Sequence record: PP400782
Origin: Escherichia phage FL31
Direction: 5' to 3' (one strand)
Length of the DNA: 64,000 nt
Below, piece after piece: positions 1,995 to 58,208 of this stretch; positions within the stretch are counted from its first letter, which is position 1, and every line of letters starts with the position of its first letter. The notes under the pieces were generated by a model that saw only the letters and a program-made list of their open reading frames with translations, had not been told where the DNA came from and did not search any database. The translations under genes and the position numbers were made by a program.

Positions 1995-2189
1995 TTATCC
2001 TCGCTTTAAACATTTGATTACAGACAGTTCTTGGCTCATGCGGACGTCTTCAGTTCCATCAACCCACAGGACTGCATAGGCTTCTTTAATTAAATTACCG
2101 TTAATTTTAAAAGCAGGTAAAACCTTTGAAATCATTCCGGGGATACCTATACCTTTTAACTGGACAGTTTGTGATAAGAATAGTTGCAT
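1995..2189 (-). CDS. hypothetical protein (64 aa)
   Basis: ORF track, abuts neighbours. Confidence 0.4.
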   Translation of the reverse strand: MQLFLSQTVQLKGIGIPGMISKVLPAFKINGNLIKEAYAVLWVDGTEDVRMSQELSVIKCLKRG

Positions 2190-2509
2190 TAGAACCTCAT
2201 CTGAAATCCGTGTGATTTAACATTACCGCCATAGATGTCAGAGGTATTGACTTCACGAGCGTCGCTAGGGTCGATGTTAATATCATGGTTGAGCTTAGTG
2301 ATTGCTAGGGTGTCACGACCATTGACTGTACGGAATTCTACTGGACAAACCACATCAGCATAAGCCTTAATGGATTCACGGGTGGGCTGTTTGTCGGCAG
2401 GAACATCTTTACCTGCTTTAGAGAAAACAACTTCACAGAAATTTTTACGAGTATCGAAATAAGTGGTCATAAACATAATATTTTCCTCAATGGAGGCCGA
2501 AGCCTCCAT
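2189..2509 (-). CDS. hypothetical protein (106 aa)
   Basis: ORF track; start may be an internal Met. Confidence 0.45.
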   Translation of the reverse strand: MEASASIEENIMFMTTYFDTRKNFCEVVFSKAGKDVPADKQPTRESIKAYADVVCPVEFRTVNGRDTLAITKLNHDINIDPSDAREVNTSDIYGGNVKSHGFQMRF

Positions 2510-2517
2510 TTTTAAGA

Positions 2518-2883
2518 TTAGATATCGAATTCATTCAGAACTACATCAAAGATTGCTTCCAGGTGTTCAGGTTTAGCTCGGTTGCTCAGGATGTGACGAA
2601 TCCAAGTTTTAACCAGAAGCTTACGATTAACACCGTTCCAGCAAGGATGAGTACCTAAATCACGTTGACGGAAATCGTCATCTAATGCAATTTTGAAGTT
2701 GGAACCTTCCATCGTGATTGAAACCGTGATGCCATTTTCAAATCGCATATAAACGTAGTTAGGAGTCATGCACTGTTCGATTTCACAAACTGTACCATTT
2801 TCGTGTTTCCATAAGCAAATAACTTCAGAAGAACCAGCGATACCGTTAGAAACATATTTACGTTCGAAGTTGATGTAGTTCAT
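2518..2883 (-). CDS. hypothetical protein (121 aa)
   Basis: ORF track; early-type promoter immediately upstream at 2913-2953. Confidence 0.5.
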   Translation of the reverse strand: MNYINFERKYVSNGIAGSSEVICLWKHENGTVCEIEQCMTPNYVYMRFENGITVSITMEGSNFKIALDDDFRQRDLGTHPCWNGVNRKLLVKTWIRHILSNRAKPEHLEAIFDVVLNEFDI

Positions 2884-2912
2884 TTTATTCTCCAGATGTT
2901 TAAGTTATTTGT

Positions 2913-2953
2913 TGGTACAGGACTATAATAACATAACCTGTACCAAAGTAAAC
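2913..2953 (-). promoter_or_regulatory. early-type promoter (GTTTAC -35, 17-nt spacer, TATTAT -10)
   Basis: Minus-strand read; 8-bp inverted repeat GGTACAGG/CCTGTACC flanks the -10. Confidence 0.5.
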
Positions 2954-2957
2954 ATTT

Positions 2958-3329
2958 TTATTTGATTTTTGTCCACTTAGCTGAATCAATAACACCTTTT
3001 GCTTTAATCTTCTCAATTAATGACTCTGCGCGATTTCTGGCATTTTCGTACCATACAACATCTTCAGAGTAACCAGTTTCTTCATCTTCGTAAGTTTTAG
3101 AACGAATACAGCCATAAACTGTAGAATTCAGACGGTAAATTTCACCAGTGAAAAAGTTTTCGATTTCGATATGATAACAAAAATCGTCTGAAGGGCCGTC
3201 AGGAGTTGTACAATAAACCACATCACCTTGAACTGAACGAACCATCCACTGTAACTCGTTAACAACTTGAGATTTATATCCATCATGGTCACGGCATTTA
3301 ATTGTAGCATTTAAATTGATAGTGTTCAT
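2958..3329 (-). CDS. hypothetical protein (123 aa)
   Basis: ORF track; early-type promoter upstream at 3362-3400. Confidence 0.5.
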   Translation of the reverse strand: MNTINLNATIKCRDHDGYKSQVVNELQWMVRSVQGDVVYCTTPDGPSDDFCYHIEIENFFTGEIYRLNSTVYGCIRSKTYEDEETGYSEDVVWYENARNRAESLIEKIKAKGVIDSAKWTKIK

Positions 3330-17020: not shown

Positions 17021-18716
<1,696 letters not shown>

Positions 18717-32416: not shown

Positions 32417-32435
32417 TTGATAAATGGGAGGTAAT

Positions 32436-33095
32436 ATGGCAGCACCAAAAGTATCATTTTCGCCTAGTGATATTTTATTTGGGTTGCTAGACCGCATTTT
32501 CAAAGATAACGCCTCTGGAAATATTCTTATTTCCAGAGTTGCTGTTGTAGTTCTTTTGTTCCTAATGGCACTAATATGGTACAAAGGGAATATTTTTATG
32601 GATTATTACGTGAGGTCGAAATATGATACTTACACAGAAGTAATTCAAAAAGAAAGAAATACACGATTTGAATCTGCGGCTTTAGAACAACTACAAATAG
32701 TCCACGTCACATCAAGGGCGGATTTTAGTTCGGTGTATTCTTTCAGACCTAAAAATCTAAATTATTTCGTCGACCTTATTGCGTATGAAGGTAAGTTACC
32801 TAGCACAGTAACTGAAAAATCTATGGGAGGATTTCCTGTCGATAAAACGACAGCAGAATATTCGGTCCATTTAAGTGGACTTCACTTTACTTCTAAAACA
32901 GATTTTGCTTTCTTACCTACCAAATCAAAAACTCCGGAACTGGCATATATGTATAGTTGTCCTTACTTCAATTTGGATAACATATATGCTGGAACTGTTT
33001 CTATGTATTGGTATAAGGGGTCAGATGTGTTAAATGAAGAACGCTTGGCCGCAATATGCAACCAAGCTGCAAGGATATTAGGGCGGGCTAAATAA
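32436..33095 (+). CDS. t: holin / lysis inhibition sensor T
   Basis: MAAPKVSFSPSDILFGLLDRIFKDNASG...RVAVVVLLFLMALIWY...CNQAARILGRAK matches T4 holin; SD GGGAGG; late promoter 32409-32416. Confidence 0.95.
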   Translation: MAAPKVSFSPSDILFGLLDRIFKDNASGNILISRVAVVVLLFLMALIWYKGNIFMDYYVRSKYDTYTEVIQKERNTRFESAALEQLQIVHVTSRADFSSVYSFRPKNLNYFVDLIAYEGKLPSTVTEKSMGGFPVDKTTAEYSVHLSGLHFTSKTDFAFLPTKSKTPELAYMYSCPYFNLDNIYAGTVSMYWYKGSDVLNEERLAAICNQAARILGRAK

Positions 33096-55994: not shown

Positions 55995-56219
55995 TTAACT
56001 CCTTTGTTGTTTAATTACAGGTGTATTTATAATGAATTTCTTCGGGACAATAAAATATCCGAATTTAGCTAATATAACAACATCACCGTTAATTATTACC
56101 GGAGAATAATCATCTGGAGTATTAAATTTCCAGTGGAGTCTAGTATTATATCCATCAGAGCCGAATGCTTTATTAGCCGGTCTCCCGGCTTTTTGCCATG
56201 CATAAAAATCAAGTTTCAT
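55995..56219 (-). CDS. hypothetical protein (74 aa; alternative longer start at 56333)
   Basis: ORF track frame; short form MKLDFYAWQKAGRPANK chosen because upstream region is occupied by another frame coupled to gene 56. Confidence 0.35.
   Translation of the reverse strand: MKLDFYAWQKAGRPANKAFGSDGYNTRLHWKFNTPDDYSPVIINGDVVILAKFGYFIVPKKFIINTPVIKQQRS
56024..56031 (-). promoter_or_regulatory. late promoter TATAAATA upstream of soc
   Basis: Minus-strand TATAAATA about 32 nt upstream of soc ATG. Confidence 0.6.
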
Positions 56220-56382
56220 TTGCAACCCAATCAACCACATGTAGATGGTCTGATAATTGACTAACATGCTGAAGCTGATTAGACAGGAGCTTACAAATAA
56301 GCTCACTGTTATCATTTTTAAATAGTTGGTCAATACGTTTCTTATGAGCTTTCTTAAGCTGACGTTTATTTAAACGAGCCAT
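56209..56382 (-). CDS. small basic protein (57 aa)
   Basis: Hand translation MARLNKRQLKKAHKKRIDQLFKNDNSELICKLLSNQLQHVSQLSDHLHVVDWVANET; ATG overlaps gene 56 stop (TAATG). Confidence 0.35.
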   Translation of the reverse strand: MARLNKRQLKKAHKKRIDQLFKNDNSELICKLLSNQLQHVSQLSDHLHVVDWVANET

Positions 56383-56903
56383 TAATAACCTCGGTCTTGA
56401 CGAGCAAAGTTTTCAGCATTCTTCAGATAATACAGTTTAAAGATTTCTTCGGCAGAAAGACCCAGACCTTGGAACATGTTCAGAACGAAGTGCAGAATAT
56501 CAATCATTTCGAATTTAATTTCGAGCTGGTCTTCAGGAGACAGTTCATCAATACGACGATTACGATATTCAGCATGTTGTGCTTTCCATGGCTTCCACAC
56601 AGAGCTGGCAGCTTTTTCACCGTTGGACATACCACCAAGTGAAGTCAGCAGTTCACGAAATTCATCATCAATATAATCTTTCTGATTACGCAGCCAATCA
56701 ACAACATCGCCAGCAGTGGCCAATTCATCAGGATGTTTGTTATGTTCAGGCTTGTCATTTGCCAAACGAACCTGTAAAGATTTCTGCATATCAAGCATTA
56801 CCTGCAGTGGGTCTTTATCTTCGTGAATCAGAGCATTAAAATAAGCTTCTTCTGCTTTATCAACACCAGAAATAAGTTGTGAACATTCGTTAAAGTGTGC
56901 CAT
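56382..56903 (-). CDS. 56: dCTPase/dUTPase gp56 (MazG-like)
   Basis: MAHFNECSQLISGVDKAEEAYF...DPLQVMLDMQKSLQVRLAN...ELATAGDVVDWLRNQKDYIDDEFRELLTSLG matches T4 gp56; start at ATG after SD AAGGA. Confidence 0.88.
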   Translation of the reverse strand: MAHFNECSQLISGVDKAEEAYFNALIHEDKDPLQVMLDMQKSLQVRLANDKPEHNKHPDELATAGDVVDWLRNQKDYIDDEFRELLTSLGGMSNGEKAASSVWKPWKAQHAEYRNRRIDELSPEDQLEIKFEMIDILHFVLNMFQGLGLSAEEIFKLYYLKNAENFARQDRGY

Positions 56904-56991
56904 TATTTTTCCTTTCAATTCAGTATAAGAGAGTTAATTCTAACATTAATTTTATAAAGCGTAATAAATAATAGGTAACTAAGGAGATATC

Positions 56992-57189
56992 ATGTTTAAA
57001 CTTCCATCGTTAATCAACGCTATTAAAGGCAATAAAAAGAAAACTGCTATCGCTGCAATAGTTGTAGGTGGCATTATTTCATGGAACTTCGGGATTGCAC
57101 CATTGCTAGTTGCCCATGGTGTTATGGTTCCTTCTGTTCCATTGGATACTGTAGTTGATTTGGCCTTTGCTATTATAGGGCTTGTTTAA
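56992..57189 (+). CDS. small hydrophobic protein (65 aa) on the opposite strand, convergent with primase
   Basis: Strong SD AAGGAG 5 nt before ATG; predicted TM segment TAIAAIVVGGIISWNFGIAPLLVAHGV; lies in the only sizeable gap between 56 and 61. Confidence 0.45.
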   Translation: MFKLPSLINAIKGNKKKTAIAAIVVGGIISWNFGIAPLLVAHGVMVPSVPLDTVVDLAFAIIGLV

Positions 57190-58208
57190 ATCTTCGAATA
57201 ACGAGATAATCTCATTTTAGCATGCAACCCACTTGAAATATTCTGTTTCATATATTCTAAAATTTCTTGTGGTGTTGCATTTTCTTTCATTACCATATCA
57301 TTCACATCCTTTGATCTCCATGGAGCTCGATCCCAGAACATGACACGTTCGCCTGCATCAACTAATCGCTTCATGCGAGCTATAGTATCCGGATGCCTAG
57401 GTTCATTATCCATTACCCATACCCGACGTTCTTTAAACGGTACCACATCTAAATCTATTGAGCCGCCTGTAATAGCGATTGCATTGGGTATGAATAAACT
57501 ATCAATAGGGCCTTCCATTACCCAGACGTCCCCTTCCTTAACACGTTCAACACCATAAATTTTTGTTGCAGACTCAAACGCTTTAATAGTGATATATTTC
57601 TGAGGAGCATCTTTACGAAGTGCACGTCCTTGGAATGACTCGGCCTTCCCATCTTTATTAAAAATAGGAATCACTAAACGTGGTTCGGGGATCTCTTTCT
57701 TATACGTACCAGGTTGAATCTTGTTGACCAATTTGGGCCATTCTAATGTGAACCATAATCTGTTCCACGATTCTTTAGGAATACACCGAGACTTAACATA
57801 TTTCACAATAGGATGCTCTTCAGGCAACTTGTCCAGACGAGAACAAGACGGCAAAGAATTTATAGTCTTTTTCTCTGGCTCTGGCTTAGCTTCAGGAACC
57901 TTTTCAATCTTTGGTTCCATTCTAGCTTTTTCTTTACGAACTTCCATTAGATATTCGCGATAAAGCTCTTCATCATACTCCTTTAAGTATCCGGAAATTG
58001 TATTGTGGTATTGACAGTTATAGCAATGTACATTACCAGGAGTACCGCCATAATACCAACCGCGAGCTTTCATTGCATCTGTCTGAGAGTCGCCACAAAC
58101 TGGACATCGAAATGTTAATTTAAATGTGCTTGAATTATTGATTTGTCTAAAACGAGGTAGGTGAGAAAACGCACGATAAGCAAATTCATTATCTATCCAT
58201 TCAGCCAT
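57186..58208 (-). CDS. 61: DNA primase gp61
   Basis: 340 aa; WIDNEFAYRA, zinc ribbon CPVCGDS...CYNC, Toprim ITGGSIDLDVVPFKERRVWVMDNEPRHPDT match T4 gp61. Confidence 0.93.
   Translation of the reverse strand: MAEWIDNEFAYRAFSHLPRFRQINNSSTFKLTFRCPVCGDSQTDAMKARGWYYGGTPGNVHCYNCQYHNTISGYLKEYDEELYREYLMEVRKEKARMEPKIEKVPEAKPEPEKKTINSLPSCSRLDKLPEEHPIVKYVKSRCIPKESWNRLWFTLEWPKLVNKIQPGTYKKEIPEPRLVIPIFNKDGKAESFQGRALRKDAPQKYITIKAFESATKIYGVERVKEGDVWVMEGPIDSLFIPNAIAITGGSIDLDVVPFKERRVWVMDNEPRHPDTIARMKRLVDAGERVMFWDRAPWRSKDVNDMVMKENATPQEILEYMKQNISSGLHAKMRLSRYSKI

Follow-up and report, generated by a model that had tools for sequence, protein, structure and literature searches.

A conserved small open reading frame convergent with the primase gene of an RB69-like phage and its predicted single-pass membrane product

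The interval between genes 56 and 61

The stretch of DNA analysed here (64,000 nucleotides, in the following called the window) belongs to an RB69-like phage (Mosigvirus) of the T4 type. In the 2 kb around the small open reading frame (ORF) that is the subject of this work, the DNA is 99.7% identical to that of Escherichia phage mobillu and 97% identical to that of RB69. The ORF itself lies on the plus strand at positions 56992-57189 and encodes a candidate single-pass inner-membrane protein of 65 amino acids (MFKLPSLINAIKGNKKKTAIAAIVVGGIISWNFGIAPLLVAHGVMVPSVPLDTVVDLAFAIIGLV). Its left neighbour, on the minus strand at 56382-56918, is the gene for the gp56 dCTPase/dUTPase (PHROG 173, E 1.4e-45; Pfam dUTPase_2), for which the ATG at 56903 is likely the true start. 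The right neighbour at 57186-58208, also on the minus strand and convergent with the ORF, codes for the gp61 DNA primase (PHROG 47, E 8.9e-102; gene 61 of RB69). The gap between the genes for gp56 and gp61 measures 267 nt, and it is inside this gap that the ORF is located.

Upstream of the ORF, a Shine-Dalgarno (SD) sequence, AAGGAG, is present on the plus strand at 56981-56986, followed by five nucleotides (ATATC) and the ATG at 56992. At the downstream end, the stop codon of the ORF (TAA, 57187-57189, plus strand) and that of the primase gene (57186-57188, minus strand) overlap in a common TTAA at 57186-57189. A preliminary description of the window had pointed to a hydrophobic plus-strand ORF of 65 amino acids with a near-ideal SD sequence, in convergent layout with the primase gene and with its stop overlapping the primase stop. 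Every detail of this proved correct in the sequence, and one transmembrane (TM) helix is predicted in the product. An ATG-initiated ORF of at least 65 amino acids was obtained by chance in only 1.0% of shuffles of this 271-nt stretch, and the arrangement AAGGAG-N4-8-ATG occurs just six times in the 64 kb when both strands are counted.

Furthermore, the relation of the ORF to dam was assessed, as the preliminary description had stated that no ORF of methyltransferase size lies between genes 56 and 61 and had brought the small ORF into connection with this absence. The first part is confirmed: the gap is far too small for the 259-aa Dam. A tblastn search for a homologue of T4 Dam was blank both in the window (best E 0.25) and in RB69, where the whole genome was covered (best E 0.16), and the annotation of RB69 contains no methyltransferase. 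Thus, of the interpretation offered there, the real ORF, the SD sequence, the convergence and the missing dam all stand, but the link between the ORF and the absence of dam does not. In T4, dam is located between gene 56 and the homologue of the ORF, so that dam and a 66-aa homologue coexist in the same phage, which rules out the ORF as a replacement for dam. T6 and RB3 (Tequatrovirus), which are without dam at this locus, have likewise retained the ORF. A tblastn search with the ORF retrieved 858 phage records, as compared to about 180 records for a T4-like Dam of at least 90% identity. Judged by these gene contents, the missing dam is ordinary lineage-specific variation that is unrelated to the ORF.

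GATC is the only strongly avoided 4-bp palindrome. Its ratio of observed to expected sites is 0.22 for the window and 0.23 for RB69, and it amounts to 0.35 for a 50-kb stretch of T4 (76-126 kb). An explanation of this scarcity by the lack of dam was considered and rejected, since the site is avoided in the dam-plus T4 too. The avoidance of GATC is a general trait of T-even phages, dam-plus and dam-minus alike; McClelland is said to have described it for enterobacterial phages in 1985.

The interval between gene 56 and the primase gene is variable and can contain dam, segF or other homing endonuclease genes, with the small ORF as the constant element. The left neighbour of the ORF differs between phages and may be gp56, dam, a homing endonuclease or other ORFs. 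On the other side of gene 56, two small ORFs are found on the minus strand of the window at 55995-56382, in the interval between soc and gp56. They encode a DUF7422/PHROG 5773 protein and a 57-aa 'soc.2'-like protein of PHROG 5782. Both are also present in mobillu; RB69 is unmatched there, the alignment beginning at window position 56380, and has an unannotated gap of 234 nt from soc to gene 56. T4 carries segF at the equivalent place. This difference is another sign that the interval is a hot spot for insertions and deletions.

Conservation as a coding sequence

The ORF is a homologue of RB69ORF029w (NP_861719), and the two products are 95% identical, differing by three substitutions in 65 amino acids. 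The orthologue in RB3 (RB3_032) is noted as 'dam.1'. The product matches PHROG 2024, a family of unknown function, over its entire length (E 2.6e-27, with residues 1-65 aligned to all 65 positions of the profile), and the identical protein is found on 156 public contigs, where it is called 'hypothetical protein' each time. The ORF is an already catalogued conserved hypothetical gene, a member of PHROG 2024, and not a novelty; T4-type phages whose records list it as a hypothetical protein number in the hundreds. Literature searches on RB69ORF029w or 'dam.1', on ribosome profiling of T4 and on unannotated small ORFs retrieved nothing on this gene, and no transcript, ribosome-profiling or proteomic record of the ORF family was found in the literature for any phage. 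In a profile search, 117 clusters at 90% identity were obtained with lengths of 63-68 amino acids, save for a few shorter sequences that are probably partial. An exhaustive profile search of 1.84 billion protein representatives returned only 19 clusters at 50% identity; the family is therefore small and restricted to phages.

A homologue on the plus strand and tail-to-tail with the primase gene is present in seven genera of the Tevenvirinae, namely in Mosigvirus (RB69), Tequatrovirus (T4, T6 and RB3), phages of the Gaprivervirus type (P479 and Yersinia phage P8, with two tandem paralogues), Moonvirus (KM16), Gelderlandvirus (Proteus phage ABTNLPp2), Jiaodavirus (KpV477 and KP1079) and Slopekvirus (Marfa). 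RB69ORF029w is the sole plus-strand CDS of RB69 from coordinate 1 to 80.6 kb. The tandem paralogues of the Gaprivervirus type are highly diverged (positions 2001-2407 of the P479 extract, L005, and 2001-3053 of the P8 extract, L006). In P8, a homing endonuclease is inserted in the second copy, and a remnant of 33 amino acids is mislabelled 'DNA packaging ATPase'.

Within Tequatrovirus, three further observations concern individual genomes. The T4 homologue, with 66 amino acids (MVQKLMALVNAIKGNKKRIAF...), is located at 17738-17938 of NC_000866, where dam and gene 61 are 309 bp apart, and is preceded by the SD sequence AAAGGAGG. It is unannotated both in NC_000866 and in the 1984 record X01416, and the exact T4 protein is present in the protein collection only from raw-read assemblies that are without an NCBI accession. 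In T6 (extract L002, about 2480-2510), ATT stands in place of the ATG with which the small ORF begins in T4, and the start is annotated five codons further on, at a distance of 19 nt from the SD sequence. The small ORF of T6 may therefore be translated poorly or from a non-canonical start. In RB3 (extract L013, 490-520), the annotated primase CDS ends 28 nt from the small ORF without overlap. The 3' end of this primase gene shows a one-base difference (taaccccctggg as compared to taacccctggg in T4), which suggests a frameshift or a sequencing difference.

Decisive for the reality of the ORF is its conservation as a coding sequence. For 16 pairs, dN/dS according to Nei-Gojobori ranges from 0.08 to 0.5. 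Synonymous sites have reached saturation between genera (pS 0.6-0.75), and both the frame and the length are maintained, the homologues ranging from 63 to 70 amino acids. The differences at codon positions 1, 2 and 3 amount to 30, 12 and 41 between the window and T4, second positions being the most conserved, and to 21, 8 and 31 between KM16 and the Proteus phage. At the protein level, 64 sequences all share W31, N32, P37 and G43, P47 and G63 are nearly invariant, and the motif W-N-[FY]-h-h-h-P-h-h-A-x-x-G-h-x-L-P-x-h-x-L-[DE] is retained even in those members of the family that are most distant. The coding-type substitutions together with the constant length indicate a protein gene under purifying selection. 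By all comparative measures applied here, the ORF is a genuine conserved protein-coding gene.

Distant members of PHROG 2024 (E 4e-10) were detected in uncultured phages and prophages that are not T4-like, on the contigs L023 (2279-4089), L027 (2260-4082) and L028 (777-3213). Two of these homologues (L023 and L027) follow directly on a lambda-J-type tail-tip gene and an endonuclease VII gene, and the third (L028), located at a prophage border, is the final gene of the phage. One of the distant homologues lies at a distance of about 1.5 kb from a Phage_lysozyme gene. No primase gene is found near the distant homologues. They are accompanied by a TM-plus-coiled-coil protein of 81-98 amino acids and by conserved proteins with lengths of about 180 and 105 amino acids, and this neighbourhood may represent a conserved accessory module.

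Upstream signals and probable timing

The late promoters of T4 carry the consensus TATAAATA at -13 to -6. A late-promoter-like box, AATAAATA, is present on the plus strand of the window at 56963-56970, 21 nt before the ATG of the ORF, and would place a putative transcription start near 56976-56978. The only conserved blocks in ten homologous upstream regions (seven genera and one metagenomic contig) are the AGGAGG-type SD sequence, which is nearly invariant, and (N)ATAAATA; the remainder is unalignable. In 13 of the 15 homologues, the box NATAAATA is found at a distance of 20-31 nt ahead of the assigned ATG, provided that T6 is counted from the T4-equivalent start (measured from the ATG annotated for T6, the distance is 45 nt), and the other two have ATTAAATA. 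The canonical TATAAATA is rare in the family. It is found in the Klebsiella phage Marfa, and a metagenomic relative has CATAAATA. As the box is seldom canonical, the late promoter would be weak at best.

Nolan et al. 2006 (PMC1524935) report A or T at position -13 in RB69-type phages, and in their scan of RB69 with a hidden Markov model no late promoter was called ahead of ORF029w. Sites with the sequence AATAAATA precede e, rI, inh and gene 15 of RB69. The pattern VATAAATA is depleted in RB69, with 25 sites observed as compared to about 55 expected. Similarly, [ACG]ATAAATA occurs 8 times on both strands of the window with about 20 expected, and TATAAATA is found at or above expectation in RB69 and the window. 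Selection against stray late promoters would fit the depletion of [ACG]ATAAATA.

Promoter predictions of the sigma-70-like, early and MotA types gave none that is directed into the ORF. In the opposite direction, a MotA-type middle promoter for gp56, divergent from the ORF, is predicted on the minus strand at 56937-56960 (GCTTTA at 56960-56955, a spacing of 12 nt, and TAGAAT at 56942-56937). The identical sequence of RB69 is listed as Pm:16038 with a score of 21.6 (Nolan et al. 2006, PMC1524935). This promoter is the positional counterpart of the T4 promoter P(M) 16.53, the oriA promoter, which is annotated in X01416 and NC_000866, and an oriA-like origin may have been retained at this place in the RB69-type phage in spite of the absence of dam and segF. 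The AATAAATA box of RB69-like phages abuts the divergent middle promoter of gp56, and part of the conservation of the box could serve the gp56 promoter instead.

With regard to timing, a late, gp55-dependent transcription of the ORF appears probable from the position and recurrence of the box. The gp55-RNA polymerase would transcribe the ORF late from its own (N)ATAAATA box, and early and middle transcription would cross it in the opposite direction, from the primase gene to gp56 (in T4, to dam).

Predicted product, possible roles and known systems

In the predicted product, a TM-like insertion energy is reached only by residues about 18-41. For six members of the family, the best 19-mer of the C-terminal part, where the hydrophobic stretch AFAIIGLV lies in the ORF product, scores between +5 and +11 kcal/mol. 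The charge bias, a net +5 ahead of the helix and -2 behind it, predicts that the N-terminus faces inside and the C-terminus outside. The model that AlphaFold2 built from the family alignment has a pLDDT of 84 and helices at residues 4-12, 15-41 (27 residues) and 51-62. For RB69ORF029w, a TM segment at 21-41 and no signal peptide have been reported (Nolan et al. 2006, PMC1524935, Additional File 2). A membrane protein with a single pass, the N-terminus in and the C-terminus out, is thus very probable on the basis of these models. The basic N-terminus (KGNKKK) would then be cytoplasmic, the helix at about 18-41 would lie in the cytoplasmic membrane, and a periplasmic tail of about 24 residues would carry the conserved motif G-x-x-[LVI]-P-x-[VIM]-x-[LM]-[DE] and a short helix. 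Searches of Pfam and NCBIfam, PDB profile searches and BFVD fold searches gave no functional match beyond the PHROG 2024 family itself or above chance level.

Overall, we explain the locus as a protein gene with a single-pass membrane product and a late box of its own, and we assign to this explanation a probability of roughly three in four. As to the role of the product, our guess is a tentative one: an accessory factor would bind a membrane partner via the conserved WN...P helix and the periplasmic motif and would modulate a late event at the envelope, either the timing or inhibition of lysis or the exclusion of incoming phage DNA. This guess is based on the small size, the single-pass topology, the conserved periplasmic motif, the probable late timing and the accessory positions of the relatives.

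Several other readings of the locus have to be weighed against this explanation. That the product is a superinfection-exclusion or moron-type membrane protein, which blocks DNA entry or protects the envelope in the way of the unrelated Imm, Sp and HK97 gp15, seems unlikely. The predicted N-in/C-out single pass with its conserved periplasmic motif would suit such a protein, as would the accessory positions of the distant homologues, after the tail-tip gene in L023 and L027 and at the prophage border in L028. However, the context of three metagenomic contigs is weak evidence, searches of PHROGs, Pfam and NCBIfam revealed no resemblance to Imm, to Sp or to an exclusion family, and the exclusion genes of T4 are early, whereas no early promoter is predicted for the ORF. 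Rather unlikely, too, is a dual reading, in which the ORF would be an overlooked core late gene of T-even phages whose microprotein tunes lysis, lysis inhibition or exclusion and whose terminator-less transcript in addition silences residual primase mRNA. If this were true, a single small locus would combine a protein function with an RNA function.

A function as a small holin or pinholin-like lysis protein is improbable. It is suggested by the small size, the hydrophobicity and the likely late promoter, by its annotation as 'putative holin' in the record of Klebsiella phage KP1079 and as 'Holin' in the UniProt entry for phage OE5505, and by the Phage_lysozyme gene in the vicinity of one distant homologue. 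However, only one TM-like segment is present instead of two, the insertion energy of the C-terminal stretch (+5 to +11 kcal/mol) being unfavourable. The charge cluster is N-terminal and there is no charged C-terminal tail, and no holin family of Pfam or PHROGs was matched. In addition, the phage already has a T holin (window 32424-33095), with rI, rIII and the spanins encoded elsewhere, and the ORF is not adjacent to the endolysin gene e (65200-65673 in RB69). The labels 'holin', 'head morphogenesis' and 'DNA packaging ATPase' that are found in some records are unsupported automated names.

The preliminary description had also raised the possibility that the convergent gene acts through an antisense effect on the primase 3' end. 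In its full form, this would be a cis-antisense regulator whose plus-strand transcript lowers primase mRNA or its translation, the ORF being secondary. The arrangement as such permits it. The stop codons overlap in TTAA, and the 4-nt tail-to-tail overlap recurs in most genera, being present also in RB69, T4, T6, KM16, Proteus phage ABTNLPp2 and Marfa. No intrinsic terminator was predicted after the ORF by a scan of the window, by TransTerm in RB69 or by folding (z -1.6), so that any plus-strand transcript would continue into gene 61 as antisense RNA. The element GAGA-TAA-TCTC-ATTTT was considered as a terminator and rejected as too weak; it is conserved since it encodes the C-terminus of the primase. 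However, an antisense effect is not what is conserved at this locus. The substitution pattern is of the protein type, with a third-position bias, a dN/dS below 0.5 and a conserved SD sequence. Furthermore, the overlap is absent from Jiaodavirus, where an 18-nt spacer with a GC-rich hairpin (GGGGC-TTTG-GCCCC) separates the ORF from the primase gene. In Yersinia phage P8, the homing endonuclease lies between the two, and the distant members of the family have no adjacent primase gene at all. Because of the constraint on the protein, the Jiaodavirus hairpin, the insertion in P8 and the primase-free homologues, antisense regulation would not be the conserved function, and we regard it as highly improbable; the antisense crossing may be a side effect.

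Finally, a chance ORF in a regulatory region (the gp56 middle promoter or an oriA-like element) that annotation pipelines call repeatedly could account for its shortness, its AT-richness, its place beside a strong predicted middle promoter and its absence from the T4 RefSeq annotation, but by the comparative data this reading is already refuted, as such an ORF arises in 1% of shuffles only, frame, length and SD sequence are kept in seven genera despite saturated synonymous sites, dN/dS is well below 1, four residues are invariant, and the promoter takes up only about 40 nt at the beginning of the gap and leaves the ORF free.

The locus is of modest interest for its omission from the T4 reference annotation and for its unique strand. 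T4 is among the most thoroughly annotated genomes, and yet its RefSeq record omits an ORF that is kept under purifying selection in seven genera. The ORF is, moreover, the only late-strand gene in an 80-kb minus-strand block of mostly early and middle genes. If a phenotype were defined, the envelope toolkit of the T-even phages would gain another small membrane protein, and the locus would offer a clean case of convergent early and late transcription across the primase gene.

When compared with known systems, the ORF agrees with RB69ORF029w, RB3_032 'dam.1' and PHROG 2024 in position, strand and primase overlap, and nothing material differs. With Dam of T4 it has only the location in common and is unrelated in sequence. 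The late genes of T4 that lie in early regions (soc, e and rI) resemble it in being short genes with a late-type box and a strong SD sequence. However, these genes are on the same strand as their early neighbours, whereas the ORF is on the opposite strand and convergent with the primase gene, and they have TATAAATA promoters, whereas the promoter of the ORF is only inferred and mostly non-canonical at -13. The T4 proteins Imm, Sp, RI, RIII, Ac and gp52.1 are similar to the product in their size of 50-100 amino acids, in their predicted membrane anchor and in their dispensable-looking character, and sp and imm belong to the same neighbourhood, being 1.5-3 kb away in RB69. In contrast, there is no sequence or profile similarity to any of these six proteins, and the strand and the probable timing of the ORF are opposite to theirs.
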